From: Alphaproteobacteria bacterium
GTDB lineage: Bacteria > Pseudomonadota > Alphaproteobacteria > Rs-D84
Assembly (NCBI GenBank): GCA_016927395.1
Contig: JAFGMU010000009.1
Span: 1 to 49,617, forward strand
Length of the DNA stretch: 49,617 nucleotides
Reading direction: 5' to 3'
The number at the start of each line of letters is the position of its first letter. The stretch's first letter is position 1. The position numbers and the translations under genes were made by a program. Positions 2,099 to 43,835 of this stretch are shown here, one piece after another. The notes beneath the pieces are model-generated. The model did not search any database. It saw nothing but the letters and a program-made list of their open reading frames with translations, and had not been told where the DNA came from.

Positions 2099-2183
<85 letters not shown>

Positions 2184-2202
2184 TTTAATATAAAATTGTT
2201 TT

Positions 2203-2796: not shown

Positions 2797-2806
2797 CTTA
2801 TATCCT

Positions 2807-2929
2807 TTAATAAACCGGATAATTTCTTGGATAATTTGCATCCGGTTTTTCCAGGGCACTTTTAACCCCACATCCGGTCAATGTTCCAATCAAAGAAATA
2901 AAAATAAATAAAGTAAGTATCTTTTTCAT
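2807..2929 (-). CDS. small lipoprotein (40 aa), LptM/YifL-like lipopeptide
   Basis: Own translation MKKILTLFIFISLIGTLTGCGVKSALEKPDANYPRNYPVY. Lipobox LTGC followed by G-x-K-x-x-L-x-x-P as in the small LPAM-type lipoproteins. Confidence 0.55.
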   Translation of the reverse strand: MKKILTLFIFISLIGTLTGCGVKSALEKPDANYPRNYPVY

Positions 2930-2964
2930 ATTTTGATTGTAAAACAAAAATATCACATTGCAAA

Positions 2965-2996
2965 CAAAAAACCACCAAACTGTGGTTTTAATTTTT
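2965..2996. terminator. hairpin terminator (A-run/T-run on both sides)
   Basis: aaaaaACCACcaaactGTGGTtttaattttt. Nearly the same sequence as the parC/rpmG terminator at 1786-1812. Confidence 0.6.
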
Positions 2997-3260
2997 GGCA
3001 GACGCGATACAAAACAATGCGAACCTTATTATCCAAGAAGTCTTGGGTATCGTAGAAATACTGACCGACGCTGACTTTGCGTTATATAAGCCGAAATCGC
3101 CCCCGTCGCCCGAACCCTATATCCCCCACGAATCTATATCCGTATCCGGATTATAACCATTATGTTTGATATTGATTTTCTATCGATTTTGTGATATAAC
3201 TCTTTCATCAAAAACAAAGGCGGCATTATGCCGTTTTTTTTATTACCAAAGGAAATAATA

Positions 3261-4286
3261 ATGTCTAAAGCAGATTGGGCAGGTGCAATTTGGAACGCCA
3301 AAGGTGAGCTAGTTCTTGATATCCACAAAAATCCACCAGATGTAAAAAATGATAAGAATACCAACAGGTCACAACATACATACAGCGAAATAGACTGTGG
3401 CGGGGACTGTGGTGCCTGCATTGCGCTTGTTGTTGACGGCGAAGTTGTGGATGGACCACCGTTTCATAAGAATTGTAAATGTAGTGAGCCAAGCGTCGAT
3501 GATATTGATAATGCGGAAGTTCACGAATCTAATCTGGGCGATGAAGTTGGTCCAAACAGAAATTCTAAACCAGATGATGTTAAATGGTTAAAAGAATCAT
3601 TACATGAACTAGGTTTTTATGAGCCAGATACCCGCGCAGGCGAAAGTGAAAATAATTTAAACGAATATCCAAACCAGAATTTATTTGATGGAATTAACAA
3701 GTTTCAGCGCGAGCATAATCTGAAAGAACGCGGTTCCGTAAAACCGGGCCATCATACCGAAGCAAAACTGAATCATGAATTAGAAAACCAAACAAAACAA
3801 CCCGCAGAAAAGTTCAACTATAATGGTTTTACCTTTAATGGCCCAATAAACCATAAGGACGGTCAGTATGCTGTATTTGACGGAAAATCCTTGACTGTCT
3901 ATGAAGACAGCGAGAAAGTCGCCGAATGGGGTGCTGTTTCTGGTAAAGAAGGTTTTCAAAGTCCTGAATATCAGGATAAAAAATCAACTGGTCCGTTACC
4001 CAAAGGTGCTTATGTCGCACGAAAGAAAGATTTTCAGTCCAGAAGTGATTATGGACCAATAAAAAGGTATACATCTTGGCCTGGTGGTCAAGATAGTTGG
4101 GGAAATCACAGGGGATGGCTGGAACCCGCTTCGGAAAAGAATACTTTGGGTCGCAGTGGTTTTAGTATTCACGGTGGCAAAGAGCCTGGTTCACAAGGTT
4201 GTATTGATCTAACCTCTGGGATGGATGGATTTGCGGATTGGTTTAAAAATAATGGAAAAGATTTGATTCTTTATGTAACATATTAA
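3261..4286 (+). CDS. polymorphic-toxin-like protein: MuF C-terminal motif + peptidoglycan-binding-like domain + Tlde1/DUF2778 (L,D-transpeptidase-fold) toxin domain
   Basis: Start at MSKADW (aaaggaaataataATG). CGACIALVVDGEVVDGPPFHKNCKCS resembles the PP-x-H-x-N-C-R/K-C end of phage Mu F / SPP1 gp7 domains. VKWLKESLHELGF...FDGINKFQREHNLKERG is PG_binding_1-like. The C-terminus (WGAVSG...STGPLPKGAY...GRSGFSIHGG..GSQGCIDL) matches the DUF2778/Tlde1 pattern. Confidence 0.65.
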   Translation: MSKADWAGAIWNAKGELVLDIHKNPPDVKNDKNTNRSQHTYSEIDCGGDCGACIALVVDGEVVDGPPFHKNCKCSEPSVDDIDNAEVHESNLGDEVGPNRNSKPDDVKWLKESLHELGFYEPDTRAGESENNLNEYPNQNLFDGINKFQREHNLKERGSVKPGHHTEAKLNHELENQTKQPAEKFNYNGFTFNGPINHKDGQYAVFDGKSLTVYEDSEKVAEWGAVSGKEGFQSPEYQDKKSTGPLPKGAYVARKKDFQSRSDYGPIKRYTSWPGGQDSWGNHRGWLEPASEKNTLGRSGFSIHGGKEPGSQGCIDLTSGMDGFADWFKNNGKDLILYVTY

Positions 4287-4311
4287 ATAATAACAAGATA
4301 TAGATAATAAA

Positions 4312-4629
4312 ATGAAAAAAAAGAACGATATTATTTTAGAGGTATTTGCTGTATTATGGTTTGCTTTATTCTTCTTTTTTCTTAGCGATTTTTATTCAAT
4401 TATGAAAATTGCAAAATGGGATGGAATTTGGTACTCTTTATGTCATTACAAACATATATGTACAGTTTGGACTGATGTAATATTAGCAATTTTGTTTTTC
4501 CTAATGGGCATGTTATTTGCTTTCAAATTATTCAAAAAATATAAATGGAAAATAATCTGGATACCTGTTGTATCGTTGCCTATATATTTTCTAATAATGT
4601 TTATTTCTATGATTATATTGTGGGCTTAA
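4312..4629 (+). CDS. small polytopic membrane protein (possible cognate immunity protein)
   Basis: 105 aa with 3-4 hydrophobic helices, 25 nt downstream of the toxin ORF on the same strand. The immunity role is inferred from position only. Confidence 0.5.
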   Translation: MKKKNDIILEVFAVLWFALFFFFLSDFYSIMKIAKWDGIWYSLCHYKHICTVWTDVILAILFFLMGMLFAFKLFKKYKWKIIWIPVVSLPIYFLIMFISMIILWA

Positions 4630-4636
4630 AGTAAGG

Positions 4637-5084
4637 TATGGCAACAATGTATACAATCGGATTTTCAGGCAAAAAAGCAGACCAATTTATCGAGGTTCTG
4701 GATGCCGTCGGCGTCAAAACTTTGGCGGATATTCGTCTGTGGCGGGCTGCGCGATTTGTCCCATGGGCATCGGGAATATGCGCATCGAGCGGGCAAGGTA
4801 AAGGGTGAAACCGATGCGCAGACCCGCGCAAGATTAAAAGAGCAAATATCTGAATGTGATGGGCATATCGCGTCATTCGCTAAACTGATAGCGGACAGTG
4901 TGCTTGATGGCGATGTGGGTATGTTGGAAATATATAAAACACAAATTAAAACGGCGACCGATAAAAAGAAAGAATTGGAATCTGCGTTGGACGATGTGCC
5001 CGAGTCAGTAATAGCCACCGATAAATTTCGAACCGCGCTAACACGGCAGATTTTCAATAAAAACACCGCCCAAACGGACGGTGA
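4637..5084 (+). pseudogene. fused remnants: DUF488 N-terminal fragment + serine-recombinase C-terminal coiled-coil fragment
   Basis: MATMYTIGFSGKKADQFIEVLDAVGVKTLADIRLWRAARFVPWASG (DUF488-like) stops after 56 codons. A second frame continues with RARLKEQISECDGHIASFAKLIA...EIYKTQIKTATDKKKELESAL, typical of large serine recombinase tails. The ORF-track version runs into tRNA-Glu. GC content is visibly higher than the surroundings. Confidence 0.5.
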
Positions 5085-5092
5085 ATTATCTT

Positions 5093-5168: not shown

Positions 5169-5176
5169 AATGTCTC

Positions 5177-10889: not shown

Positions 10890-10916
10890 AAAAAAGCGGT
10901 TTTTAACCGCTTTTTT
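10890..10916. terminator. bidirectional terminator
   Basis: aaaaaaGCGGTTtttAACCGCtttttt between convergent genes. Confidence 0.8.
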
Positions 10917-11397
10917 ATAAGGCCCAACCTTCGACTTTCCAATATGCACGGTCAACCGTTCCTGTGTTTGCTTTCAAATCAATCCTGGTTGTTGTTCCGG
11001 CTGAACGAAGATATACTATCGCTCCACTGGTGTTGTTGATATAACCACTTAGGGTTATTGTGAAATCTGCACTTGCCATTTCTTTTGAAAAATAAACATT
11101 CACAACAGATGTTGTAAGATTGTTGATATAACCGCCTTGTTCTATCCAACCGCTTTTATATTTTCTGTACCACGAAGCATTTGTTCCCCCAGATTCAATA
11201 ACAAAATCATAAGTTTCTGGAATTGTCGTTTGTGTTGGTATTTCATCTGCACGCGCCAATTGAATTCCACCAACCGTTTCCCCATCGTGAACGAATATGG
11301 TTTTTTTATCGGTGTCCATTGTTACTTCGCCGATTGCACCGGTAAAGCTGGCATGTTCAGTCGTCGTGCCACGACGTATTTGTATTTGTCGGCTCAT
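10915..11397 (-). CDS. orphan phage tail-fibre / receptor-binding-like protein (160 aa)
   Basis: N-terminus MSRQIQIRRGTTTEHASFTGAIGEVTMDTDKKTIFVHDGETVGG is the IQ(I/L)RRGT...GE...D motif seen at the start of many phage fibre, Mtd and hyaluronidase-type proteins. SWYRKYKSGWIEQGGY resembles gp53-like fibre C-terminal domains. Confidence 0.6.
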   Translation of the reverse strand: MSRQIQIRRGTTTEHASFTGAIGEVTMDTDKKTIFVHDGETVGGIQLARADEIPTQTTIPETYDFVIESGGTNASWYRKYKSGWIEQGGYINNLTTSVVNVYFSKEMASADFTITLSGYINNTSGAIVYLRSAGTTTRIDLKANTGTVDRAYWKVEGWAL

Positions 11398-11419
11398 AAT
11401 TTTTACCTTTTGTTATAAA

Positions 11420-11444
11420 GAAAAAACCGCGGGAATCCGCGGTC
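11420..11444 (-). terminator. hairpin + T-run directly upstream of the tail-fibre-like gene
   Basis: Minus strand ACCGCGGattcCCGCGGTttttttc, about 25 nt before the SD/ATG at 11397. Confidence 0.55.
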
Positions 11445-11541
11445 TGTTTGAACATGATTATATCATAAATTACAAAAAAAATCAATACATAAATAACGTT
11501 GCTGGTTGAAAATTAAAAAATATGGGTTTATAATAAAATCG

Positions 11542-22933: not shown

Positions 22934-22962
22934 TTGACTTTTTTATCGTTTTGTGATAGTAT
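22934..22962 (+). promoter_or_regulatory. near-consensus sigma-70 promoter with extended -10
   Basis: TTGACT-N17-TAGTAT with TGa immediately upstream of the -10. Confidence 0.55.
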
Positions 22963-22988
22963 TATAAAAGTAAAAGTACAAAATATGC

Positions 22989-23012
22989 CCGCACAATGAT
23001 GCGGTTTTTTTT
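22989..23012 (+). terminator. leader terminator 1
   Basis: CCGCAcaatgaTGCGGtttttttt, about 20-40 nt downstream of the predicted TSS. Confidence 0.5.
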
Positions 23013-23035
23013 ACTTTTTTAATTACACAAGATTT

Positions 23036-23062
23036 AACCCGTAAATTTTTTACGGGTTTTTC
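23036..23062 (+). terminator. leader terminator 2
   Basis: AACCCGTAAAtttTTTACGGGTTtttc, a 10-bp stem 26 nt before the first gene of the particle cluster. Confidence 0.65.
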
Positions 23063-23087
23063 TTTTGCTATAAAAAGGAAATATCAT

Positions 23088-23498
23088 ATGCATTTGACGA
23101 TTATAAAAAATCCAGACGAATCAAAAATAGTCATGTATAAAATTGCAAGATTGGTTTATGCGGAAACTTTTGGTTCATCACTGGCTGCTGTGGAAGCTTT
23201 AACGTCAATGATATCTAACTTATGCATAACTTCAAAAAGAGAACTTTCTGACATAGCCCAAGATAATAATATTTTCGAATCATTAAACAAAAATTCAAAG
23301 CGTAATAAATATCTGTCAATTGATAGTGGAAATCGGAATTTTAAAATGTGCATTCGTGTAGTTCAAAGAATGTTTAATGGAAATTTACCAGATTCTTGTT
23401 TTGGCGCAACAAAATTTCATCATATCGAGGTGTTGCCAGATTGGGCCAGATCACGTGGATATATCGCAGAAATAGACGGTTTATTATTTTACTTATAA
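23088..23498 (+). CDS. cell-wall hydrolase (SleB/CwlJ Hydrolase_2 family), endolysin candidate
   Basis: IARLVYAETFG...ATKFHHIEVLPDWA...IDGLLFY follows the Hydrolase_2 pattern. Confidence 0.65.
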   Translation: MHLTIIKNPDESKIVMYKIARLVYAETFGSSLAAVEALTSMISNLCITSKRELSDIAQDNNIFESLNKNSKRNKYLSIDSGNRNFKMCIRVVQRMFNGNLPDSCFGATKFHHIEVLPDWARSRGYIAEIDGLLFYL

Positions 23499-23518
23499 AT
23501 TTTAAAAAGGGACTTGTT

Positions 23519-23710
23519 ATGGAAAAAATTATAACAGGCGGCTTTATGGCCGGAAAGAGAACGTATATAGTGTCGACCGTCGGAATACTTTCTGCGATCG
23601 GTGCATATTTAGTCGGAGATACCACGATATTTGGTGCTCTGCAAACAATTTTTACATTGGGTGGAATATATTTTCTGCGTAAATCAAATGAAAATAAAAG
23701 GAAAAAATAA
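23519..23710 (+). CDS. holin-like small membrane protein (63 aa, 2 TM, basic tail)
   Basis: MEKIITGGFMAGKRTYIVSTVGILSAIGAYLVGDTTIFGALQTIFTLGGIYFLRKSNENKRKK. Placed directly after the hydrolase. Confidence 0.5.
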   Translation: MEKIITGGFMAGKRTYIVSTVGILSAIGAYLVGDTTIFGALQTIFTLGGIYFLRKSNENKRKK

Positions 23711-24367
23711 ATGAATAAAATTCCAGAAAAATTTCTGAACGAAGACGGAACATTGAACTCTGATGCTTTGGTAAAGTCTTATTCTGAACTTGAAAAAAAA
23801 ATAGGGTCAATGATTTCTGTGCCAGATGAAGATTCAGATCCAGATGTGCGTGAAAAATTTAATCGCGCAATAGGTGTTCCAGATGATGCCAGTCAATATC
23901 CACAAAATGTTTTGTTTGAAGATGAATCGGTTCGTAATAAATTTTATGAAATTGGTTTGACTGCAAAGCAAGTTGAAAAAATTTATGAAATCGCAGATGA
24001 ATTTTTGTCACCAGTGTTATCAGAAGTTTTTAGAACACAATATGAATCAAACGCAATTTCTGATTTGAAAAAGTTTTTTGGTGACGAAGATAAAATGAAA
24101 GATGCAATAAAAGAAATAAATGCATTCGGACAAAAATTTTTACCAGCCGAAGCATTCGAAGCTCTAAGCGCTACACCCCAGGGAATTCAAAGCATTTATA
24201 AGATGATGCAATCAATGGAACCAACTGTTAGAACCGATAATAATGCTGCACAAAATTTTTCAGATTCAGATTTAAGACGAATGATGCGAGATCCAAAATA
24301 CTGGCGCGAACAAGATCCAGAATATGTTCGCAAAATCGAAAGCGGGTTCAAAAAATTATATTCATAG
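23711..24367 (+). CDS. capsid scaffolding/assembly protein candidate
   Basis: N-terminus MNKIPEKFLNEDGTLNSDALVKSYSELEKKIG is typical of podovirus scaffold proteins. Acidic, helical, and sits upstream of the capsid gene. Confidence 0.55.
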   Translation: MNKIPEKFLNEDGTLNSDALVKSYSELEKKIGSMISVPDEDSDPDVREKFNRAIGVPDDASQYPQNVLFEDESVRNKFYEIGLTAKQVEKIYEIADEFLSPVLSEVFRTQYESNAISDLKKFFGDEDKMKDAIKEINAFGQKFLPAEAFEALSATPQGIQSIYKMMQSMEPTVRTDNNAAQNFSDSDLRRMMRDPKYWREQDPEYVRKIESGFKKLYS

Positions 24368-24468
24368 ATTTTTCACTTTCTTCTTTACTAATTTTTTGGT
24401 TTTAGATAAAATAAGTTACAAGAACAAAAAAATTTGTTCTACCGAGAAAACTTAAAAGGAGAGAAAGA

Positions 24469-24762
24469 ATGGCATTTACATTCTTAAAACCAGCCGCAAA
24501 AAAACCAGCTGTAAAAAAACCAGCTGCAAAAAAACCGGTTGCTAAAAAGCCAGCTGCAAAAAAACCAGCTGCCAAAAAAGTAGTTGCTGCAAAACCAGCT
24601 GCTAAAAAAGTAGTTGCTAAAAAGCCAGCTGCAAAAAAACCAGTTGTTAAAAAAGTAGTTGCAAAAAAAGTTGTTGCTAAAAAACCAGTAGCAAAAAAAG
24701 TTGCAATGAAAAAGCCAGCTGTAAAAAAACCAGCTGCTAAAAAGAAAGTTGTAAAAAAATAA
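24469..24762 (+). CDS. histone H1-like Lys/Ala/Pro repeat protein (97 aa)
   Basis: About 17 tandem (P/V)(A/V)(A/V)KK pentapeptides. By my count 37 Lys and no acidic residue. Strong SD aaaaggagag. Confidence 0.75.
   Translation: MAFTFLKPAAKKPAVKKPAAKKPVAKKPAAKKPAAKKVVAAKPAAKKVVAKKPAAKKPVVKKVVAKKVVAKKPVAKKVAMKKPAVKKPAAKKKVVKK
24478..24750 (+). repeat. 15-nt coding tandem repeats (aaaaaaccagctgca-type)
   Basis: Degenerate 15-nt periodicity encoding the AAKKP units. Confidence 0.8.
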
Positions 24763-24763
24763 T

Positions 24764-24791
24764 AAAAGTCCTGCAATTGCGGGACTTTTTA
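24764..24791 (+). terminator. intrinsic terminator after the H1-like gene
   Basis: aaaAGTCCTGCaattGCGGGACTttttt. Confidence 0.8.
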
Positions 24792-24819
24792 TTTCCAGGT
24801 TAAAAGATTACAACAAATT

Positions 24820-24848
24820 AAAACACGCCCACAGGGCGCGTTTTTTTA
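24820..24848 (+). terminator. second intrinsic terminator
   Basis: aaaacaCGCCCacaGGGCGcgttttttt. Confidence 0.7.
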
Positions 24849-25026
24849 TTCGGTTTGATTTAATCTTTTAATTTTGATTCGCGGATAATTCTGGATGTCT
24901 TTGATAGATATTATTTGAACCCGCTTATTTTATTATTTGGCGCGATGATTCGCATAACCAGAAAATAAAATTCCCCTGATGCGCATTTTATGCGTTTTTT
25001 AATTTAAAAAACAAAAGGAAAATTTT

Positions 25027-25854
25027 ATGTCTGTTTCCATAGATCAAGTCTTCGTAAAACAATTCGAAGCTGATGTTCATTTGGCTTATCAGCAAATGGG
25101 CACCAAACTGCGTTCAACTGTTCGCAGCAAATCTGGTATTATCGGCAGTTCTACCACTTTCCAAAAAGTAGGCAAAGGAACAGCTGCAACAAAATCCCGC
25201 CATGGTATCGTGCCGGTTATGAATCTGAATCATGAACCTGTTGAATGTATGTTACAGGATTACTATGCAGGCGACTGGGTAGATAGTATGGATGAATTAA
25301 AAACAAATATTGATGAACGTCGTGTCGTTGCTTCGGCTGGTGCATATGCATTGGGACGCAAAACAGACGAATTGATTATTGATGCTATGAACGCTGCAAA
25401 TGTTGAAGTTGGCGATTACACAACAAATTTGACCAAAGATTTGATTTTATCTGCTGTAGAACAGTTAAATGCAAATGATGTGCCAGATGATGGTCGTAGA
25501 TTCGCAGTAGTTGGTGTTCAGCAATGGAATCAATTATTGTCAATGGATGAATTTGTATCTAGTGAATATGTTGGTGGCGAAACACCATTGGTATCAGGAT
25601 TTGAAACTAAAAAATGGTTGGGATTGGTTTGGGTATTACACAATGCTTTGCCAATAAACGAATCTGGTCGTGATTGTTTTATTTATCACGCAGCCAGCGT
25701 TGGGCACGCATGTGGACAAGAAGTTAAAACGGATATCAGCTGGCATGGTGAACGTGCTGCGCATTTTATATCCAACAGCATGTCCCAAGGCGCCGTTTTA
25801 ATTGATGCAGACGGTATCGTACGTATTAAGTGCGATGAAACTGCTTCTATCTAA
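25027..25854 (+). CDS. major capsid protein, T7 gp10-like
   Basis: VFVKQFEADVHLAYQQMGTKLRSTVRSKSGIIGSSTTFQKVGKGTA parallels T7 gp10 (LFLKVFGGEVLTAFARTSV...VRSISSGKSAQFPVLGRT). Position is scaffold > capsid > tubular proteins. Confidence 0.75.
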   Translation: MSVSIDQVFVKQFEADVHLAYQQMGTKLRSTVRSKSGIIGSSTTFQKVGKGTAATKSRHGIVPVMNLNHEPVECMLQDYYAGDWVDSMDELKTNIDERRVVASAGAYALGRKTDELIIDAMNAANVEVGDYTTNLTKDLILSAVEQLNANDVPDDGRRFAVVGVQQWNQLLSMDEFVSSEYVGGETPLVSGFETKKWLGLVWVLHNALPINESGRDCFIYHAASVGHACGQEVKTDISWHGERAAHFISNSMSQGAVLIDADGIVRIKCDETASI

Positions 25855-25880
25855 TTTAAAATAACCAAAGGAAAATAGAA

Positions 25881-26111
25881 ATGGCATTTCAAAATAAAAA
25901 CTTGTCTGTGATTGCTTATGCTAATGGATTTACTCTGTGGCATTATGCAGCTGCTGAAACATTGGCAACAATTACTGCAACTGGTTATTTTAATAGTGTT
26001 AAAACTTTGATGAATATTGGCGATATTATTATTGTTAATGCATCGGATAACACTTCGATTAAAAAAATCAATATTACGGAACTTAACGTAACAACAAACG
26101 CTTTGGCATAA
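25881..26111 (+). CDS. small virion-associated hypothetical protein (76 aa)
   Basis: Good SD (aaaggaaaa). Co-transcribed with the capsid gene and followed by a terminator. Confidence 0.5.
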   Translation: MAFQNKNLSVIAYANGFTLWHYAAAETLATITATGYFNSVKTLMNIGDIIIVNASDNTSIKKINITELNVTTNALA

Positions 26112-26130
26112 TTTTTAGCACAATTAAAAA

Positions 26131-26167
26131 AAGACCAAGAGATTTTAATCTAGTGGTCTTTTTTTTA
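26131..26167 (+). terminator. terminator after the capsid unit
   Basis: AAGACCA...TGGTCTTtttttt compound hairpin. Confidence 0.7.
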
Positions 26168-26182
26168 ACACAGGATTTACAA

Positions 26183-26701
26183 ATGCTTACAAAAATTGAT
26201 TTGTGTTCTTTTGCACTGTTGAAACTGGGCGAAGAACCAATACAATCCCTGACTGATAATTCTGCTTCTGCTCAATTATCCAGGACACTTTTTGATCCAG
26301 TTGTCGAAACTTTGATTGCTTCGCATCCATGGCGATTCGCACAGAAGAAATTTGAATTAACAAAAACGGCTGATGATGTATTTTTGATACCTTCTGAAGT
26401 TCTGAGAGTTCTGAAATGTCCAGGAGAAGTAATAGGAAATACAATTATTTCTTCCAGTGATGTGATTTCAATTTCAGCAATAGTTCGCACATCAGTTGAA
26501 TATTTCCCAAGTTATTTTGTATCACTGGCCGCAACCAAGCTGGCAATGGAGTTTTGTATCCCATTGTTAGGTGATCAAAATGTTTTCAGAATGCTGGCAG
26601 CATTATACGAATCAGAGTTGCGCGTTGCAAAGTTTATAGACAGCACGATTTCGGTAAATACTGATATCAGAGATTTTTCGCTGGTCAGTGCACGTTTTTA
26701 A
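26183..26701 (+). CDS. tail tubular protein A, T7 gp11-like
   Basis: IDLCSFALLKLGEEPIQSLTDNSASAQLSRTLFD...HPWRFA parallels T7 gp11 (NDILASIGEPPVSTLEGD...A...GWTFN). Confidence 0.65.
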   Translation: MLTKIDLCSFALLKLGEEPIQSLTDNSASAQLSRTLFDPVVETLIASHPWRFAQKKFELTKTADDVFLIPSEVLRVLKCPGEVIGNTIISSSDVISISAIVRTSVEYFPSYFVSLAATKLAMEFCIPLLGDQNVFRMLAALYESELRVAKFIDSTISVNTDIRDFSLVSARF

Positions 26702-26725
26702 TATTTTTTACAAAGAGCAAATATC

Positions 26726-28438
26726 ATGGGAAACTTTATTTATACTCAAAACTCTTTTGCATCCGGAGAAGTGTCATCGGAATTTTTTGCACGTGAAAAT
26801 CTGAACGGGTTGTCAAAATTAGAAAATATGGATGTTATATCCAGTGGGGCTTTGTCCAGACGACGTGGTTTAATGAATGTATCAGAAACGATTGCTGGGA
26901 CACGATTAATACCTTTCTCTGTTAACGAAGATGAAAATTATATACTGGCATTGACTGATGGTCATATAAACGTTTTTTATAACGGATCAAAAATCCAAGA
27001 TATTATTTCACCATGGAACGAATCTAGTTTGGAAAAATTGCAGTATGCACAAAGATTTGGAACAATGATATTTGTTCATCCCGATTATCAACCCCATGTT
27101 CTGAAAAAAGGAATAATAAATTTTGAATTATCAGTTTTTAGTTTTTCATCAAATGATGATATGACTGTAAATATACCTTTTATGAAATTTGATGACGCCA
27201 GTGGAATAAAAATAACAGTAACAACAAGCGCGTACGGTAATAGTTATGCAACATTTACCACAAATAAAAATTTCTGGAACAGCACCAATGTTGGTGGTCG
27301 ATTATATTTGTTGGGAAAACAATGGATAGTTTATGAATATGTCAGCCCCACAGTTATAATAGCAAATCTTAATGGAAGTTATGTACTTCCGGGATCTGCT
27401 GTATCAGACTGGTCCGAGGCAGCATTTGGTACACGTCGTGGCTGGCCATGCAGTATTTCTTTTCATCAAGACAGATTGGTTTTTGGGGGTTCACGTGAAT
27501 GGCCCAGCGGTGTATGGATGTCCAAAGTCGGAAATCATAACAATTTTGATGCAGGCACAGGATTAGATGACGAAGCAATATTTATAACACTGTTGTCAGA
27601 ACAGCGTCAACAAATTTGCACAGTTGTCAGCAGTGATAATTTACAAATTCTGACATCAACAGGTGAATGGGCAATATCAAATAAACCATTAATACCATCA
27701 TCGGTTGATATAAAACAGCACACATCGGTTGGCAGTTTTTCTGAAAGATACTTGCCACCACAGAAAATAGAAGGCAGTACGGTTTTTATATCAAACAGTA
27801 AAAAAGATATTCGCGAATTGTCTTTGGACGAACTGAGTGAAAACTATAACGCGACTGATTTGTGTTCTTTGTCAAAGCACCTTATGGATAATCCAATAGA
27901 TTTGGCATACAACGATCAAACCGGTCAATTGTTTATAGTTATGCAAAATGGAGATATGGCTGTTTTAAATAAAAATTCAAATCTGGGTGTTTCTGCGTGG
28001 GGAATTTATAAAACCCAGGGAAATTTCGAATCTGTTGCAGTTATGGATGGTGAAACATATGTTTCTGTTAAACGTAATGATAAGACTTTTATAGAAAAGT
28101 TTTCAGATTTGGCCTTAATCGATAATGGAATTTATGGATTTTCATATGCAGCGTATGGGTTGCCTTTATTAAGTGCAAAAAATTCACCGACAAAAATCAG
28201 AATACGAAAAATCAGCGCGCGTGTTCTGAATACAAAATCATTGTTTATAAATGGGTTTCGCGCACCATTGCCCAATGAAGCATATTCAGATGATTCGCCA
28301 GGATATTCAGGCGATGTGTCTATAAATTTGTTGGGGTCATCAACAGACATAATCCAACCAGTGTGGAAAATAGAAAGCAGTGAACAACTGCCAACAACGG
28401 TTCTGTCACTAAGCGTTAATGGTTGGTACATGGTTTAA
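26726..28438 (+). CDS. tail tubular protein B, T7 gp12-like (short, 570 aa)
   Basis: N-terminus NSFASGEVSSEF...NMDVISSGALSRRRGL...ENYILALTDGHINVF parallels gp12 (KGGISQQP...GLQKRPP...YYAVFTNGDIRVF). Position is after gp11-like. Confidence 0.6.
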   Translation: MGNFIYTQNSFASGEVSSEFFARENLNGLSKLENMDVISSGALSRRRGLMNVSETIAGTRLIPFSVNEDENYILALTDGHINVFYNGSKIQDIISPWNESSLEKLQYAQRFGTMIFVHPDYQPHVLKKGIINFELSVFSFSSNDDMTVNIPFMKFDDASGIKITVTTSAYGNSYATFTTNKNFWNSTNVGGRLYLLGKQWIVYEYVSPTVIIANLNGSYVLPGSAVSDWSEAAFGTRRGWPCSISFHQDRLVFGGSREWPSGVWMSKVGNHNNFDAGTGLDDEAIFITLLSEQRQQICTVVSSDNLQILTSTGEWAISNKPLIPSSVDIKQHTSVGSFSERYLPPQKIEGSTVFISNSKKDIRELSLDELSENYNATDLCSLSKHLMDNPIDLAYNDQTGQLFIVMQNGDMAVLNKNSNLGVSAWGIYKTQGNFESVAVMDGETYVSVKRNDKTFIEKFSDLALIDNGIYGFSYAAYGLPLLSAKNSPTKIRIRKISARVLNTKSLFINGFRAPLPNEAYSDDSPGYSGDVSINLLGSSTDIIQPVWKIESSEQLPTTVLSLSVNGWYMV

Positions 28439-28459
28439 CCATATCCAAAGGAGAAAATA

Positions 28460-28807
28460 ATGTCACAAATAGTATCTGATGTAACAGATGTTTTGAATAA
28501 TAAAAAATCAGAAAAAGAAGCAGATAATTCAAGAAAAAAAATATTGGCACAAATTGCGGCCGATGAAAAAGCAAAAACAAATTTGGTAAAAAAAACGCTA
28601 GCAACCCAACGTGCTAAATACGGTGCTGCTGGGATGTCCAGCAGTGGAATGACCGAAGAAGCCGTTTTGAAAAGGCTGCGTGAAGAAACCGAAGAACCAT
28701 ATAACGAAAAGAAAAGAACAAATTTGGAAAAGTTAAAGAATGTAAAAGCAAAAAAGACAAATCTTTTGGGTTCATTGGTTTCAAATTTAGACAATCTGTT
28801 CAAATAA
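28460..28807 (+). CDS. Lys-rich coiled-coil protein, the only ORF in the slot where T7 has internal virion proteins
   Basis: 115 aa with strong SD (aaaggagaaaataATG). No motif. Confidence 0.5.
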   Translation: MSQIVSDVTDVLNNKKSEKEADNSRKKILAQIAADEKAKTNLVKKTLATQRAKYGAAGMSSSGMTEEAVLKRLREETEEPYNEKKRTNLEKLKNVKAKKTNLLGSLVSNLDNLFK

Positions 28808-28832
28808 AAAATAATTTATACGGAGTTAAACT

Positions 28833-29381
28833 ATGTATAAAGTTTCATACTTTGGTGATGGTCAGACTTTGGAATTTATTTTTGTATTTCCTTTCTTTCA
28901 AGAATCAGATATTCGTGTTGCACTGAACGAAGAGGTTTTAGATTTTTCGCAGTATAGCGTTAAAATTAATCCAGAATTTGATGGTGGTACAGTAATGTTT
29001 GCTGTGCCCCCAATCGAAGGTACAAAAATAGACATATTCAGACAAATAAGTCTAGAAAGAACAATTGATTACCAGCCGACTGTAAAAATAGATCCAGAAA
29101 ATCTTAATACTGATTTTAATTTTATATTGGAAGCATTTAAAGATTTTAAATCAATAGATGTTGATTTTGCAGAATGGAAAAATATTCACGATAATGTAGT
29201 GTCCAGTATTGAATACACAATCAGTCTAATAGAAGATAAACTTTCCGGCGGCGGTGTTTTAGGTTTGTATAACAATTTATTATCAGTACTTGCCAGTGCT
29301 GTGCCGAATTTAATAAATGATTATGGTTCAATAGCTGAAATTGCAAATAATGAAAACGCAGACGATTACGGAATATTATAA
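28833..29381 (+). CDS. tail fibre N-terminal (particle-attachment) domain only, T7 gp17-like
   Basis: VSYFGDGQTLEFIFVFPFFQESDIRVALNEEVL..YSV...GTKIDIFRQISLERTIDYQ...ENLNTDFNF follows the Phage_T7_tail pattern (YQLDGSNRDFNIPFEYLARKFVVVTL...IELRRVTS..RLVDF..ILRAYDLN). It stops at 182 aa vs 553 aa in T7. Confidence 0.65.
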   Translation: MYKVSYFGDGQTLEFIFVFPFFQESDIRVALNEEVLDFSQYSVKINPEFDGGTVMFAVPPIEGTKIDIFRQISLERTIDYQPTVKIDPENLNTDFNFILEAFKDFKSIDVDFAEWKNIHDNVVSSIEYTISLIEDKLSGGGVLGLYNNLLSVLASAVPNLINDYGSIAEIANNENADDYGIL

Positions 29382-29958
29382 ATTTTTAGATGAATGGAAT
29401 AAACTGTTGAATCTGGATACTCCAAAACATCATAAACAAATAACAGAGTTTTTGGCTGATGTTTTCGAAAATTCACCAAAACGCGGATTGCTGATGGCTT
29501 TTCGACATTCTGGAAAGTCGTCTGTTGTAGGAATTTTTGCAGCATGTGTTTTGTATCTTTATCCACAAACAAGAATACTGATTTTATCTGCAGAAACAAA
29601 ATTGTCTTCTCGGATGGTTTCGCACATAAAACATATCTTGGAAAATCATCCAAAGTGTAGTGATATGTTACCAGATGTAAAAAAAGAATGGGGTTCGCAC
29701 AAGATAACAATCGAGCGTCCAATTGGAATTCGTGAACCGTCTGTGATTTGTCAGGGAATTCATGGAAACGTAACTGGTTTGCGTGCAGATTTGATAATTT
29801 GCGATGACGTAGAAGTTCCAAATACAAGTAACACAAATCAAAAGCGTGAAAGTTTGCGTGAAAGATTGCGTGAATTAGATTTTATATTATCACCAAACGG
29901 GGCAATGATTTACATTGGCACCCCACATACAGTTGATACTATTTATCGCGTGGAATAA
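29350..29958 (+). CDS. large terminase, N-terminal ATPase fragment
   Basis: Walker A FRHSGKSS, Walker B DLIICDDVE, coupling motif YIGTPHT. A stop follows ...VDTIYRVE. Confidence 0.75.
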   Translation: MKTQTITEYYKFLDEWNKLLNLDTPKHHKQITEFLADVFENSPKRGLLMAFRHSGKSSVVGIFAACVLYLYPQTRILILSAETKLSSRMVSHIKHILENHPKCSDMLPDVKKEWGSHKITIERPIGIREPSVICQGIHGNVTGLRADLIICDDVEVPNTSNTNQKRESLRERLRELDFILSPNGAMIYIGTPHTVDTIYRVE

Positions 29959-31730: not shown

Positions 31731-33299
31731 TTAGTATTGAATATTGTCTGAAATATTATTCAAATCTGGTTCATTATTATCTTTCTTTGAACCAAAAGAG
31801 TTTGTTTTTGGTTCCGCAAAAGAATTGTACCCACTGTTACCATGGTCAAATTCATCCAAATCTTCGAATAAACTGTATTCACCTTTGAATGCCAGGCGCA
31901 TAGTTTCTGGTTTTCCGTGACGGTTTTTGCCGACTATGATTTCGGCTTTGCCGCGGGCATCGTTCAAACGTTTTGCCCATTCTTCATGTTCTTTTTGCAA
32001 GAACTGGTCACTGCGGCCGGAAATTTTATACATCGGGTCACGACCGTCCAGATAATATTCTTCGCGGTATGTAAACATTACAATGTCAGCGTCTTGTTCA
32101 ATTGATCCTGATTCACGCAAATCTGACAACTGTGGTCGTTTATCTGTTCTGTCTTTGGATTCGACATTACGTGATAACTGGGACAGGGCGATAACTGGGA
32201 CATCCAATTCCTTGGCCAGCATTTTTAAACCACGAGTTATTTCAGAAATTTCGTTAACACGATTGTCGCTGCGTCTTCCACCAGGGGATGTCATCAACTG
32301 TAAATAGTCAATTACAATCAATGCAATTCCGCCGTGTTTACGTGCAATTCTGCGTGCGCGTGTACGCATCATTGGAACGGACATTCCAGGTGTGTCGTCA
32401 AAATACAACGGTACCTTGGACAGTGCATCTGAATATTGTGACATTTTCAGGAAATCTTCGTCTGTTAATGATCCGTTGCGCATAGAGCTGCTGGAAATTT
32501 TTGTCTGCGAAGACAGAACACGTGATGCTAACTGCGAAGCAGACATTTCAAGACTGAAAAATACAACTGCGCCTTTGTATTTTTTGTTTGCTCGTTCTGA
32601 TAAAATAGCACTGGCCGCATTAAATGCAATATTCATTGCAAATGTGGTTTTACCCATCGCAGGACGTCCAGCAATTATAATCAGGTCAGAATGATGAAGA
32701 CCACTGATAGATTTATCCAGTTCACGAAATCCAGTTGTCAGACCAGAAAGTTTACCATCGGCCTTGTATGCGATTTCGGCTTCTTCCAGTGCTTCGCGTA
32801 ACGCGCTGGAAATAGGCATTGCGCCTTTTTCAGTAGAGCCCGCAACAGATAAATCAAAAAGTCTTTTTTCTGCAGATTCAATTTGTGTAGAAACAGGATT
32901 TTCCAAATCTTCTATGAATGCAGAATCGGTTATGTCTTGGCCCAGGTTTATTAATTCACGACGAAGTGCGTTTTCATAAACAATACGTCCATATTGTTCA
33001 GCGTTAACAACTGTTGTTCCTGCACCTGACAATTGTGTCAGATAATCAATTCCGCCAACGGATTCCAAGACACCCTGTTGTTCCAGATAATTTTTTGCTG
33101 TGATAATATCAAATGGAATTCCAGCTGCGAATTGTTTTTCAGCTAGTTTATAAATTTCCTTATGGGCAGGATGTGTAAAGTGATCAGGTCTTAGAAATTC
33201 AGACATGCGTTCCAAGGCGCGGTTATTCACCAGTACCGCTGCCAAGACTGCTTGTTCTGCTTCCAAGTTTGTCGGTAAAGTTTTCGGAGTAAAATCCAT
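31731..33299 (-). CDS. dnaB: replicative DNA helicase DnaB (522 aa, with a low-complexity C-terminal tail)
   Basis: LPTNLEAEQAVLAAVL N-terminus, GRPAMGKTTFAMNIA Walker A, IVIDYLQLM, ALSQLSR, ESGSIEQDAD. Confidence 0.95.
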   Translation of the reverse strand: MDFTPKTLPTNLEAEQAVLAAVLVNNRALERMSEFLRPDHFTHPAHKEIYKLAEKQFAAGIPFDIITAKNYLEQQGVLESVGGIDYLTQLSGAGTTVVNAEQYGRIVYENALRRELINLGQDITDSAFIEDLENPVSTQIESAEKRLFDLSVAGSTEKGAMPISSALREALEEAEIAYKADGKLSGLTTGFRELDKSISGLHHSDLIIIAGRPAMGKTTFAMNIAFNAASAILSERANKKYKGAVVFFSLEMSASQLASRVLSSQTKISSSSMRNGSLTDEDFLKMSQYSDALSKVPLYFDDTPGMSVPMMRTRARRIARKHGGIALIVIDYLQLMTSPGGRRSDNRVNEISEITRGLKMLAKELDVPVIALSQLSRNVESKDRTDKRPQLSDLRESGSIEQDADIVMFTYREEYYLDGRDPMYKISGRSDQFLQKEHEEWAKRLNDARGKAEIIVGKNRHGKPETMRLAFKGEYSLFEDLDEFDHGNSGYNSFAEPKTNSFGSKKDNNEPDLNNISDNIQY

Positions 33300-34146
33300 G
33301 GCAGATATAGTATATCAAAATTTTCAATTTTCAACGCCTTTTTTAAGAGGGTATAAAGAGCTTAGAATTCCGGTACTGAATTCCCACGGAATATCAGCAT
33401 GGCCAGAGCTTTTTCCGTTGGAAAAAATAGAAGAAATGCGCGATATTGTCGGCCCCAGACATTTTTCTTCGCAGATGATGTTGGAATATGTTAACGAAGA
33501 TAAAGCCAGATTAGATCCCGGTGCACTACATTTTTACGATTATAATTTTGATTCAAATAATGCAAAGTTGGGGGATAATTTGATAACAGGTGCTGCGATG
33601 TATTGGGATCCAAGTGGTGGTATGGCAAAATCAGACAACAGCGTTTGTGTTTTGATTTATAGAGATGATAGAAACCGTCGTATATTTATCCAAGATGTAA
33701 AATATTTAACCGTAGATGATAATGATTTTCACCCTTTGGCGACCCAATGTGAATCAATTTTGAATTTTATGCAGGTTCATAACCAAAAAAAAATCGCAAT
33801 TGAAGTAAATGGAATGGGAAATGCTTTGCCAGAAATATTACGCGAAGCTGCTATGAAACGTGGGCAATCAGTTCTGGTTCAAAAAATAGTCAGCAATCTG
33901 AATAAAGAAAAAAGAATACTGAATGCAATAGAGCCATTGTTAACAACGGGTCGGTTATATGCGCATGAAAAAATAAAATCTACTCCGCTATTATCTGAAA
34001 TGCTGGGGTGGTCACCATTGATGTCAAACAACAAAGACGATGGCTTGGACGCTTTGGCTGGGGCTATGCAATTACAACCTACGATAATCAGGACGTTGTC
34101 CAGTAAATTACGACCGTTAAAAGCAAAAATCGATTTTAAAGTTTGA
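33298..34146 (+). CDS. large terminase, C-terminal nuclease fragment
   Basis: WPELFPLEKIEEMRDIVGPRHFSSQMMLE, YWDPSGGMAKSDNSVCVL, IAIEVNGMG and KDDGLDALAGAM are RNase-H-like terminase nuclease motifs. The ATG interlocks with the dnaB ATG (CATG at 33297-33300). Confidence 0.75.
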   Translation: MADIVYQNFQFSTPFLRGYKELRIPVLNSHGISAWPELFPLEKIEEMRDIVGPRHFSSQMMLEYVNEDKARLDPGALHFYDYNFDSNNAKLGDNLITGAAMYWDPSGGMAKSDNSVCVLIYRDDRNRRIFIQDVKYLTVDDNDFHPLATQCESILNFMQVHNQKKIAIEVNGMGNALPEILREAAMKRGQSVLVQKIVSNLNKEKRILNAIEPLLTTGRLYAHEKIKSTPLLSEMLGWSPLMSNNKDDGLDALAGAMQLQPTIIRTLSSKLRPLKAKIDFKV

Positions 34147-34149
34147 ATA

Positions 34150-34743
34150 TTATTGTGCGTAATTGCACGTACCAGTGTCGATTATATAACTGCCCTTGGT
34201 ATTACTTCCAGTTTTTCCAGCCGAAAGATAACAACCAGTTATTGATGTGCTGCCTGAACTTGATGTGGCATTTGAATTTCCGGTTGCTAATACACAACTT
34301 ACACAATTGGAACCGTTGTAATAATAACCTGCGTTGCAAACAACACTTCCGGTTGTACACGTTGCATTTGATGGACATGGACTGCATGTCGTACTTGAAC
34401 TTAGATAATAACCGGAATTACAAACAATTGTACCAGTTGTACAAGTTGCATTTGATGGACATGGACTGCATGCTGTACTGGAACTTTTATAATATCCGGA
34501 ATTACATGTGAATGTTGATGGATTTATAGCTTCTCCAGAACATGTTGCATTTGCAGGGCATGCGACGCAGCCTGTATAACTGCTGGTTGCTGTTCCATAA
34601 TATCCAAATGCACAGAAATAAATAATTGGACAACTTAAACAACTTGAGCCAGATGGAGTACAAATAGGATATAAGGCAGAAAAAGCACCAGTCACTGAAA
34701 CAGCATAAATAAATAAAGAAAAAATATAAGTTTTAATTTTCAT
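34150..34743 (-). CDS. secreted cysteine-rich repeat protein (197 aa, ~20 Cys)
   Basis: Signal peptide MKIKTYIFSLFIYAVSVTGAFS. Repeated C-N-S-G-Y-Y-x5-C-S-P-C-P-S-N-A-T-C-T-T-G units (CxxC spacing). Confidence 0.75.
   Translation of the reverse strand: MKIKTYIFSLFIYAVSVTGAFSALYPICTPSGSSCLSCPIIYFCAFGYYGTATSSYTGCVACPANATCSGEAINPSTFTCNSGYYKSSSTACSPCPSNATCTTGTIVCNSGYYLSSSTTCSPCPSNATCTTGSVVCNAGYYYNGSNCVSCVLATGNSNATSSSGSTSITGCYLSAGKTGSNTKGSYIIDTGTCNYAQ
34339..34506 (-). repeat. two near-identical 84-nt (28-codon) tandem repeats inside the Cys-rich gene
   Basis: CNSGYYKSSSTACSPCPSNATCTTGTIV / CNSGYYLSSSTTCSPCPSNATCTTGSVV. Confidence 0.85.
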
Positions 34744-34745
34744 TT

Positions 34746-35009
34746 TTATATTTGTGGATCCAATGGATCAAGTATACCATCATCGCAAGTACAAGAAATT
34801 TCATCAAAAAACATTGGTGGACAATCTGGTTCGCAAGTACAAGTTGGAGAAGAATATTCGTATGTTAATTTGCATACGTTATTTATGCAATTTGTTTGTC
34901 CTATGCATAATGCGGTTCTTTCAAAGCAATCATATATAATTCCAGAAGGTGGGGCAAAAGCCTGTGATGCAAAAAATAAAACAAATAAAAAAGATAATAT
35001 TTTTTTCAT
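34746..35009 (-). CDS. small secreted cysteine-rich protein (87 aa)
   Basis: MKKILSFLFVLFFASQAFA signal. The mature part has 9 Cys (…CTCEPDCPP…CTCDDG). Its stop lies 2 nt before the start of the next Cys-rich gene. Confidence 0.65.
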   Translation of the reverse strand: MKKILSFLFVLFFASQAFAPPSGIIYDCFERTALCIGQTNCINNVCKLTYEYSSPTCTCEPDCPPMFFDEISCTCDDGILDPLDPQI

Positions 35010-35131
35010 GATGTTCACTGTTATGTACATTGGCATTATAGAAAGAAAATACATATTCTGTAAAGATTATTTTTATTCTTGGATTTATATAATTTATATT
35101 ATAAAATTGTTTGGTAGTTCAAGGATAAAAT

Positions 35132-35410
35132 ATGAAAAATAAATCGATAGTTTTATTGGCTTTGATTGTTTGCGCATGCAGCAATGTATCCAGTATAAAA
35201 TATGAAAATGATGGTGATGGTTGCACATACACTGAAACATATCGCCCCAGAAAGGTTTTTCCATTTGATTGGTTTGGAATAAATGACAAAGATGTAAAAA
35301 TACACTATGCAGGTACAACTTGTGAAAAAATGGTGGATAAAAATATAAAGAGCAGTATGTATGTTCCAGATACCGGAAAATCCGAAAAAGCAGATAATAA
35401 AAATAAATAA
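35132..35410 (+). CDS. lipoprotein (92 aa)
   Basis: MKNKSIVLLALIVCACSN lipobox, followed by the terminator at 35427-35454. Confidence 0.6.
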   Translation: MKNKSIVLLALIVCACSNVSSIKYENDGDGCTYTETYRPRKVFPFDWFGINDKDVKIHYAGTTCEKMVDKNIKSSMYVPDTGKSEKADNKNK

Positions 35411-35426
35411 TAAAACAAAAAATTAT

Positions 35427-35454
35427 AAAATCCCGCATTTTGCGGGATTTTTTA
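35427..35454 (+). terminator. intrinsic terminator
   Basis: aaAATCCCGCAttttGCGGGATTtttt. Confidence 0.8.
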
Positions 35455-35473
35455 TTTAACATAAGGAAAAAAA

Positions 35474-43833: not shown

Positions 43834-43835
43834 TT

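Follow-up and report, generated by a model that had tools for sequence, protein, structure and literature searches.

To our knowledge, enzymes of the Tlde1 type are known only as cargo of type VI secretion systems (T6SS). The Salmonella Tlde1 trims or exchanges the terminal residues of the peptide stems of peptidoglycan. The MuF toxins that we know of carry heads such as nucleases, ADP-ribosyltransferases or alarmone synthetases and are encoded inside prophages. Here we describe a locus which joins the Tlde1 and the MuF ideas in a chromosomal, lineage-specific family of putative toxins, the heads of which all would attack the cell wall. It is located in a DNA stretch of 49,617 nucleotides from an alphaproteobacterium of the Rs-D84 lineage (positions 1 to 49,617 of contig JAFGMU010000009.1, assembly GCA_016927395.1), which was analyzed over its whole length and is called the window below. 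An open reading frame (ORF) at 3261-4286 and the following ORF at 4312-4629 very probably encode a polymorphic cell-wall toxin and its cognate immunity protein.

According to PMC12306168, genomes of Rs-D84/Enterousia bacteria are mostly smaller than 1 Mb, and respiration, the tricarboxylic acid cycle and standard transporters are missing from them. The article of Jamet et al. (2017) on MuF toxins does not use the terms peptidoglycan, lysozyme or transpeptidase in its main text (PMC5576092). The first report of a gene transfer agent resembling podoviruses dates from 2026 and concerns Faecalibacterium (FpGTA, PMC12946183).

Domain architecture of the probable toxin

A sequence-only reading of the window had pointed out the ORF pair, and its description was accurate: the toxin ORF occupies 3228/3261..4286 (+) and is followed, after a gap of 25 nt, by a co-directional ORF for a protein of 105 aa (4312..4629, +) with three hydrophobic segments. 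Translation of the toxin most likely starts at 3261, since the orthologues begin at this position and an AAGGAA Shine-Dalgarno (SD) sequence is located 7 nt 5' of the ATG. The resulting protein has 341 aa and no signal peptide.

The C-terminal part of the protein (3858..4283, +) is a genuine Tlde1 (DUF2778) domain of L,D-transpeptidase fold with a putative His304/Cys314 active site. The Pfam profile Tlde1_dom (PF10908) matches aa 225-329 with 36.1 bits (cut-off 30.1) and the YkuD profile reaches 35.4 bits (cut-off 23.4), both matches together spanning aa 210-329. His304 (4170-4172) and Cys314 (4200-4202), which are part of the SIHGG...GCIDL block, are invariant in 21 orthologues. In an AlphaFold model built on these 21 orthologues, the predicted local distance difference test score (pLDDT) is about 90 over aa 200-341. 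The top three matches of the model in the PDB are the Salmonella Tlde1a entries 7UO8, 7UO3 and 7UMA (probability 1.00, target-normalised template modelling score 0.60), and ordinary L,D-transpeptidases rank below them. The assignment of this block to DUF2778/Tlde1 by the sequence-only reading is thus borne out.

This probably also applies to the peptidoglycan-binding segment that had been suggested for the middle of the protein. The PG_binding_1 profile (PF01471) yields 15.6 bits for the window protein, which is below the cut-off of 23, versus 31-35 bits for the aligned segment of relatives. The PG_binding_1-like domain, as delimited by Pfam, the relatives and the predicted model, comprises aa ~100-177 (3558..3791, +), and the model places helices at aa 104-116, 139-151 and 164-176. 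Most of the 248 proteins matched in an exhaustive HMMER search align to roughly aa 91-177 only, and the Pfam-scanned subset of these proteins carries PG_binding_1 at this segment.

The third element is a Cys/His knuckle (3396..3482, +) with the arrangement C46-x3-C50-x2-C53 ... P66-P67-x-H69-x2-C72-x-C74. It contains the motif CxxC...PPxHxNC(K/R)C that is typical of the C-terminus of MuF domains, and its residues are invariant among the orthologues. In the sequence-only reading about 75 aa had been regarded as the remnant of a MuF domain. The signature motif is indeed present, but only about 27 aa of the protein can be aligned, and the window protein does not match PF04233 (Phage_Mu_F) even at E<=10. 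A truncated MuF domain covering the first 75 aa was therefore ruled out, and the MuF part is to be read as a predicted zinc-knuckle motif of about 27 aa. The comparison with the same motif in relatives with a longer type of N-terminus covers 27 columns (hhalign 95%, E 3.7e-8). These long relatives in turn reach 25-26 bits against PF04233 (cut-off 29.6), covering profile positions 61-111 only, and also match phage head-morphogenesis proteins with E about 2e-4. The latter are siphovirus proteins, and their genes adjoin portal and terminase genes. A protein of 1540 aa (P0311) that was matched in the knuckle region turned out to be an unrelated Cys-rich PKD protein.

The knuckle is preceded by a separate segment (aa 1-45, 3261..3395, +), which is conserved in the orthologue alignment (W..WNE.GELVLDIY..PP). 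Its pLDDT is below 50, relatives carry a variable acidic insert in it, and it does not align to the long MuF-like relatives. Sequence searches of the PDB with the window protein and with the long MuF-like N-terminus gave chance matches only. Apart from the MuF-type knuckle, no PAAR, VgrG, Rhs, LXG or similar trafficking domain is detected in the toxin.

Exchange of heads and the downstream gene

In the family, the module consisting of knuckle and peptidoglycan-binding domain is joined to different heads. Besides Tlde1 these are GH108 together with PG_binding_3, three types of phage-type lysozyme, one of them with a pesticin-like match that is sub-threshold in Pfam, and a serum-amyloid-A-like domain. 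The last of these was observed in a protein of 272 aa from the exhaustive search (P0238), in which the domain (PF00277, 75.7 bits) replaces the wall hydrolase after the module. In addition, Tlde1 and lysozyme heads of the same kinds are found behind the other type of N-terminus, which is longer and MuF-like.

The gene found downstream tracks the enzyme head and not the N-terminus. Intact family genes of the Tlde1 type are followed by a co-directional gene for a protein of 100-113 aa with three transmembrane (TM) segments in all but two cases (L017 and L022; related loci are referred to by L numbers). Lysozyme and GH108 heads are followed by unrelated genes for signal-peptide proteins or lipoproteins, often on the opposite strand or convergent, and three-TM homologues follow none of these genes. 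The three-TM proteins, the relatives of which were recovered from the DNA neighbouring the toxin homologues, constitute one family with two subfamilies. Searching with the window protein (phmmer) detects them with E 1e-12 to 1e-4, and jackhmmer retrieves 34 members, and nothing else, among 4182 ORFs. A word-indexed search with the 105-aa protein yielded a near-identical copy only. The family has no Pfam match and is unrelated to DUF2195.

Tandem copies of the three-TM gene occur in four loci (L011 7025-7696, L016, L019 7034-7704 and L034 6476-7160), and orphan copies are located beside toxins that are not of the Tlde1 type (L025 8927-9262, L035 6810-7112). Conversely, orphan C-terminal fragments of Tlde1 are present downstream of one intact pair (L006 7374-7887). 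Because the partner co-varies with the head and because tandem copies, orphans and fragments are found, these genes are to be regarded as polymorphic toxin loci, and a holin function of ORF 4312-4629 was rejected on the same grounds. The earlier proposal of a toxin with its immunity protein is hence strongly backed by comparative genomics, in particular by the swapped heads and the co-varying partner.

The three hydrophobic segments of the 105-aa protein start at aa 4, 47 and 79, and a conserved loop (D..K-W-D-G-I-W..C..C) connects TM1 and TM2. Given MKKK at the N-terminal end and KLFKKYKWK behind TM2, the positive-inside rule would place this loop on the periplasmic side. A membrane-located immunity protein had been considered unusual. 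This view cannot be upheld, since transmembrane immunity proteins have already been described for one DUF2778 family (bioRxiv 10.1101/2020.02.18.954545). At the 3' end of the toxin gene, a weak promoter-like site (TTGATT-17-AATAAT, 4263..4291, +; a consensus match only) might allow independent expression of the immunity gene.

Distribution and genomic surroundings of the family

The family is confined to Alphaproteobacteria of the Rs-D84/"Candidatus Enterousia" type. A word-indexed homologue search with the toxin returned 108 protein clusters, and scanning of species-representative genomes revealed 39 loci, all in metagenome-assembled genomes of this type, labelled as Candidatus Enterousia, uncultured Alphaproteobacteria, Rickettsiales or proteobacterium. 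Their isolate labels name sheep, goat, roe deer and horse as animal sources. The complete N-terminal module was found in only about ten clusters by the exhaustive search, which covered 1.84 billion representatives. A scan of IMG/VR with the family alignment gave 56 pattern matches, none of which encodes a relative. In every context inspected, the neighbours of the relatives are housekeeping genes and never a phage head module or a prophage. The sequence of the window itself was found, among public runs, in DNA metagenomes only (sediment, freshwater, sludge and biofilm).

The window likewise represents chromosomal DNA with a G+C content of 24-44% in 1-kb windows. It contains the housekeeping genes parC, rpmG, gap, miaA, priA, lpxI, birA and dnaB as well as five tRNA genes. 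The toxin genes adjoin tRNA genes, at differing sites in different genomes. Here, the toxin-immunity pair is flanked by tRNA-Leu (2099-2183) and tRNA-Glu/Asp (5093-5253), and apart from these tRNA genes its flanks contain an unannotated ORF of 222 aa and a DUF488 fragment. The region 4638-5133 (+), in which this truncated DUF488 gene continues into an ORF that weakly matches an integrase (phrog_95, E 0.008), abuts tRNA-Glu. Intact DUF488 copies are located downstream of the toxin-immunity pair in L013, L014 and L019. The truncated gene and the weakly integrase-like ORF suggest a past rearrangement at this tRNA-flanked site.

In four other loci (L022, L028, L034 and L044) the family toxin gene is located just after a block homologous to window positions 41569-47011 and a tRNA gene. 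At the corresponding place (47026-48053) the window contains an ORF for an uncharacterized protein of 230-270 aa (47115-47927) and tRNA-His instead of a toxin gene. One locus (L001) harbours two family members within 3 kb.

Full-length orthologues with 50-70% identity retain all catalytic and knuckle residues, the promoter, the leader hairpin and the immunity gene. The retention of these features across the orthologues, including a hairpin with compensatory changes, indicates purifying selection.

Promoter and leader of the probable toxin gene

Upstream of the toxin gene, a promoter-like site (3172..3200, +) consists of the -35 element TTGATT, a T-rich spacer of 17 nt and an extended -10 element, TGTGATATAAC. 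Between this site and the SD sequence, a terminator scan detected a hairpin followed by a T-run (CGGCA-tta-TGCCG + T8, 3216..3241, +), which looks like an intrinsic terminator or attenuator. The same arrangement precedes all family genes: a TTGATT -35 element, a T-run, about six variable bases, TTTRTGRTATAAT, the hairpin or hairpins, SD sequence and start codon. One or two GC-rich hairpins are present, each with a T-run after it. Most other loci have hairpin 2 with its T-run, while the window has the promoter and hairpin 1 without hairpin 2. In 21 loci hairpin 1 is 93.6% paired, with compensatory changes in four of its six pairs, and none of 500 shuffles reached this. In an Rfam search over 1700-5400, the tRNAs alone were above threshold and the leader had no match.

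A strong promoter followed by one or more intrinsic terminators before the first gene is the design of an antitermination-controlled late operon of the lambda Q type. The position of the terminators between promoter and gene would imply regulated read-through.

To locate further promoters of this kind, a position weight matrix (PWM) was built solely from the family-gene promoters of other genomes. Above 12 bits, the PWM detects four sites in the whole window and none in shuffles. Apart from the toxin promoter (3172-3200, +, 23.3 bits), these are located before a tail-fibre-like gene of 160 aa that also has a leader hairpin (11457-11485, -, 34.8 bits), before a lone gene for a T2SSE-family ATPase (16343-16371, -, 20.4 bits) and before the first gene of a T7-like particle cluster (22934-22962, +, 14.8 bits). 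In 607 kb of related DNA, the only genes preceded by sites of at least 25 bits encode family toxins, a stand-alone lysozyme, tail-fibre-like proteins and members of an uncharacterized family of 166-aa proteins; one further site of this strength at the end of L029 has no readable gene downstream. No housekeeping gene with the promoter-leader design was found in this sample, which is centred on toxin loci. We relied on the promoter PWM because a covariance model of the leader, which kept only 6 base pairs, also matched ordinary terminators, e.g. before tRNA-Asp, and was discarded. A plain consensus search for TGTGATATAAT with 2 mismatches performed no better than chance.

Some of the genes associated with this promoter deserve mention. 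The lone VirB11/T2SSE-family ATPase gene (319 aa, 15375-16334, -) is located between priA and an FKBP gene and is also seen in L046 (1-526). It lacks a leader hairpin, and its start codon follows only 9 nt after the -10 box. The uncharacterized Cys-containing protein of 166-189 aa is encoded divergently to toxin genes (L002 11471-11971, -; L034 4506-5048, -; L011 4316-4549). Its gene has the same promoter type with 28-33 bits, the protein matches neither Pfam nor PHROG families, and the window contains no homologue. Just upstream of birA and the particle cluster, a small Cro/C1-like helix-turn-helix (HTH) gene (21440-21680, +) and a gene for a winged-helix-like protein of 140 aa (21800-22222, +) are found. 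Homologues of the small HTH protein adjoin toxin loci elsewhere (L032 5166-5414, -; L041 1372-1620, -). These two proteins are candidate regulators of the shared promoter.

Particle genes with a related control region

The T7-like cluster (22934..29958, +) starts with a control region (22934-23087) that contains the promoter, two terminator hairpins and an SD sequence, and this order of elements is conserved in the window and in two other Rs-D84 genomes (L045 and L046). The promoter of the SleB-like first cluster gene in L046 reaches 23.5 bits. The genes from 23088 to 29958 encode a SleB-like hydrolase, a small membrane protein, a T7-type scaffold protein, the capsid protein, the two tubular tail proteins (A and B), a fibre-adaptor limited to the N-terminal domain of the T7 fibre and then the N-terminal part of the large terminase. 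The remaining particle genes are located at 33205..36694 (+), namely the nuclease part of the terminase (33205-34146) and a T7-type portal gene (35474-36694). The large terminase is thus split into an ATPase ORF (29341-29958) and a nuclease ORF (33205-34146), as is also the case in L045, L046 and L047. Between the two halves, 3.2 kb on the opposite strand (29992-33299, -) encode an uncharacterized protein of 212 aa, a double-HTH protein and a DnaB helicase.

The order of the particle genes, including the 3.2-kb reverse block, is syntenic in L045 and L046, and the flanking lpxI, trmA-like and birA genes are also common to these genomes. Across the three genomes, capsid (81-85% identity) and portal (82%) are better conserved than DnaB (74-78%), LpxI (73-76%) and BirA (65-70%). 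The capsid has more than 4200 homologues, and the best 120 of those listed are all at least 76% identical. The cluster gives the impression of a particle domesticated long ago, not of a prophage, and is possibly a podovirus-type gene transfer agent or delivery device. A description of such a T7-like particle of Rs-D84 bacteria was not found in the papers searched. In T7, one of the large internal core proteins breaks down the wall at ejection. The part of the cluster from the tail genes to the terminase encodes neither an internal core protein resembling T7 gp14-16 nor a wall-digesting protein.

The tail-fibre-like gene (10915..11485, -), which encodes a protein of 160 aa with an Mtd_N domain (59 bits), is preceded by its promoter (11457-11485) and leader hairpin (11424-11445). 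It lies by itself, 12 kb away from the particle cluster, with a glycosyltransferase gene on one side and miaA on the other.

Further details of the cluster were observed. Between scaffold and capsid, a gene for a protein of ~97 aa (24470-24763, +) that consists almost entirely of KKPA/AKKV repeats, resembling histone H1/HC2, may specify a DNA-condensing protein of the particle. It is followed by two hairpins. Terminator-like hairpins with T-runs are located right before the ribosome-binding sites of the capsid (24764-24995), tubular-tail-A (26125-26160) and portal (35427-35451) genes, consistent with a cluster that needs processive antitermination. An insert between the terminase nuclease and portal genes (34150-35412) comprises two genes for secreted proteins rich in Cys, both on the - strand (34150-34743 and 34746-35054), as well as one for a small lipoprotein (35134-35412). 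This insert is absent at that place in L045 and L046.

Discussion

ORF 3261-4286 would encode a polymorphic effector directed against peptidoglycan, in which a constant N-terminal module of conserved segment, knuckle and peptidoglycan-binding domain carries a Tlde1 domain. By analogy to Salmonella Tlde1, this domain would trim or exchange terminal residues of the peptide stems in the periplasm of the target cell and thereby weaken the wall. The product of ORF 4312-4629 would be an inner-membrane immunity protein with three TM segments, the periplasmic TM1-TM2 loop of which might block the toxin. The family combines the N-terminal module with Tlde1, GH108 or lysozyme heads, each accompanied by its own immunity gene. 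Transcripts started at the family promoter would run into an intrinsic terminator, or two of them, ahead of the ribosome-binding site, so that expression probably requires an antitermination signal.

That immunity genes exist would point to transfer of the toxin from cell to cell. Having no export signal, a cytoplasmic protein cannot gain access to the wall of its producer, and immunity is therefore sensible only if kin receive the toxin from outside. The toxin may travel as cargo of the T7-like particle rather than via a T6SS. Since the toxin has no signal peptide but a phage head motif, and since its promoter and leader resemble those of the fibre gene and of the particle cluster, the particle is the most likely delivery route, although as a claim of its own we consider it tentative and somewhat doubtful. 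The sequence-only reading had suspected a link to the T7-like cluster. The common leader of promoter plus terminator supports such a link indirectly, and the link as such is still inferred. The domain identities, catalytic residues, polymorphic architecture, co-variation of partner and head, promoter and leader, and particle conservation are direct observations. Taken together, a terminator-gated and particle-delivered toxin-immunity pair is the best combined explanation, to which we assign a probability of roughly 60% because the core of this explanation does not depend on the delivery route. A more far-reaching version is conceivable and, in all its parts together, rather unlikely: the domesticated T7-like particle would be loaded via the knuckle module with interchangeable wall effectors that replace the missing T7 core, all under one dispersed antitermination regulon, with immune kin and with contact-independent delivery that possibly includes gene transfer.

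Several points weigh against the delivery of the toxin by the particle. The distance between the toxin gene and the cluster is 19 kb here, and in another genome it amounts to about 45 kb (L019 and L046 are on one contig), so that toxin and particle are linked by the control region only. Of the four promoter matches, that of the cluster has the lowest score, with 14.8 bits in the window; its counterpart in L046 reaches 23.5 bits and the one in L045 less than 18. The T2SSE-family ATPase gene matches the PWM as well, with 20 bits. The PWM itself was built on paralogues, and toxin genes lie at the centre of the sampled loci, which biases the background. Of a MuF protein, the window protein has the knuckle only, and no use of MuF proteins is known to us from characterized phages of the T7 type. 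As to gating by terminators, an immunity gene that is co-directional and begins 25 nt downstream might be shut off along with the toxin if the weak internal promoter is inactive.

A conventional effector-immunity pair of a secretion system, i.e. a T6SS or a type IV or type I system (T4SS, T1SS) encoded elsewhere in the genome, with the N-terminal module as a new adaptor, is an improbable alternative. It would agree with the family membership and fold of the Tlde1 domain, the characterized Tlde1 proteins being T6SS effectors, and DUF2778 genes have been reported near genes of T1SS, T2SS, T4SS and T5SS (bioRxiv 10.1101/2020.02.18.954545). The VirB11/T2SSE-type ATPase gene of the window (15375-16334), with its related promoter of 20 bits, could be counted on the same side, but it stands alone between priA and the FKBP gene. 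Moreover, Hcp, VgrG, PAAR, Rhs and other T6SS families were found neither in the Pfam-scanned genes of the window nor among the called neighbours of four related loci, and most genomes of the lineage, being smaller than 1 Mb (PMC12306168), have little room for a T6SS of 13 genes. The knuckle motif is otherwise a feature of phage head proteins.

It is less probable still that the two ORFs form a lysis cassette which releases the T7-like particles, with the enzyme as endolysin and the 105-aa three-TM protein as a holin of the class I type. Such a cassette would account for an enzyme without signal peptide, for the small three-TM protein directly downstream and for the promoter in common with particle genes; phages do encode proteins of the Tlde1/YkuD fold, one of them annotated as endolysin, and the GH108 and GH24 folds of other heads are typical of endolysins. 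However, the partner changes with the head, and the partner of the lysozyme and GH108 heads is a secreted protein or lipoprotein that is often encoded convergently. Tandem and orphan three-TM genes and orphan toxin fragments are hallmarks of polymorphic toxins. In addition, the particle cluster already starts with a SleB-like hydrolase and a small membrane protein of its own, and several family members can be present in one genome, as in L001 with two.

We consider it very unlikely that the enzyme is a housekeeping L,D-carboxypeptidase or transpeptidase that remodels the wall of its own cell with the help of a regulating or positioning membrane partner. Enzymes of the YkuD fold are common in wall maturation and a peptidoglycan-binding domain is present, but the protein has no export signal, the heads are interchangeable and mutually unrelated, the genes are adjacent to tRNA genes at varying positions, with a DUF488 fragment and a weakly integrase-like ORF just downstream, the leader is terminator-gated and the module has a very restricted phyletic distribution. 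A decaying, non-functional relic of a prophage MuF toxin, for which the remaining MuF fragment and the same DUF488 fragment and integrase-like ORF could be cited, is hardly compatible with orthologues of 50-70% identity that keep residues, promoter, compensated hairpin and immunity gene under purifying selection.

A terminator-gated toxin-immunity pair would be of interest with regard to its hosts, bacteria with some of the smallest free-standing genomes in gut and sludge. That reduced genomes keep several such pairs suggests that attacking the walls of other cells is central to their lifestyle. They also keep a phage-type particle, the capsid and portal of which are better conserved than the replication helicase. 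Should the leader truly couple toxins and particle, the system would represent a testable case of a domesticated virus that delivers protein toxins, and it would open a way into a new antitermination regulon. Even without such a coupling, what remains is a clean, new family of effectors and immunity proteins in which the catalytic pair is defined.

Relation to known systems

The closest described systems are the Tlde1/Tldi1 pairs of Salmonella and other Proteobacteria (Tae5-7/Tai5-7 in bioRxiv 10.1101/2020.02.18.954545). The locus shares with them a DUF2778 domain above threshold, the His/Cys site, the Tlde1a fold and an adjacent immunity gene, and one described subfamily also has transmembrane immunity. 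It differs by an N-terminal extension of 200 aa, the known proteins being single-domain or Rhs fusions, as well as by a context in which no T6SS was seen, an immunity protein unrelated to DUF2195 and a terminator-gated leader.

With the MuF polymorphic toxins (Zhang et al. 2012, PMC3482391; Jamet et al. 2017, PMC5576092) the family has in common the motif CxxC...PxHPNC(R/K)C upstream of a variable toxin part and a small immunity-like ORF that follows; delivery by a phage-type particle has been proposed in both cases. Unlike in these toxins, only the knuckle is present here, and half of the Pfam domain, below cut-off, in the longer relatives. The genes are located among housekeeping genes and not beside portal or terminase genes, and the heads would act on the wall from the periplasm. 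Of the features by which Zhang et al. (2012) define polymorphic toxins, the family displays a constant N-terminus, interchangeable heads, head-matched immunity genes and orphans, while a recognized trafficking domain that would name the export route was not found.

If the link to the particle holds, the family would resemble the wall-degrading virion proteins of podoviruses, such as T7 gp16, and the wall-enzyme fusions of MuF and polyvalent proteins (Iyer et al. 2017, PMC5512222), in that a wall enzyme is carried in a short-tailed particle and released at the envelope of the recipient. The Rs-D84 particle cluster itself is without a gp16-like protein. The family has no sequence relationship to gp16 and its genes are dispersed in the chromosome. 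In comparison with gp16, the interchangeable heads with their dedicated immunity genes point to harm to recipients rather than to a local entry hole. Pesticin and its immunity protein Pim are similar as a modular bacteriocin system with a wall enzyme as killing domain and immunity in the envelope, and some family members have a pesticin-like head; receptor-binding and translocation domains of the colicin type are missing here, and the genes are not plasmid-borne.

Finally, gene transfer agents of the RcGTA type and the podovirus-like FpGTA (PMC12946183) also comprise a particle encoded in the core genome, a separate fibre gene and common control elements. The predicted Rs-D84 particle differs from them in being T7-like with a split terminase, and gene transfer agents are not known to carry toxins. 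Overall, the combination of Tlde1 with MuF-type elements is a new variant within known kinds of systems, with an unexpected regulatory tie to a conserved T7-like particle.

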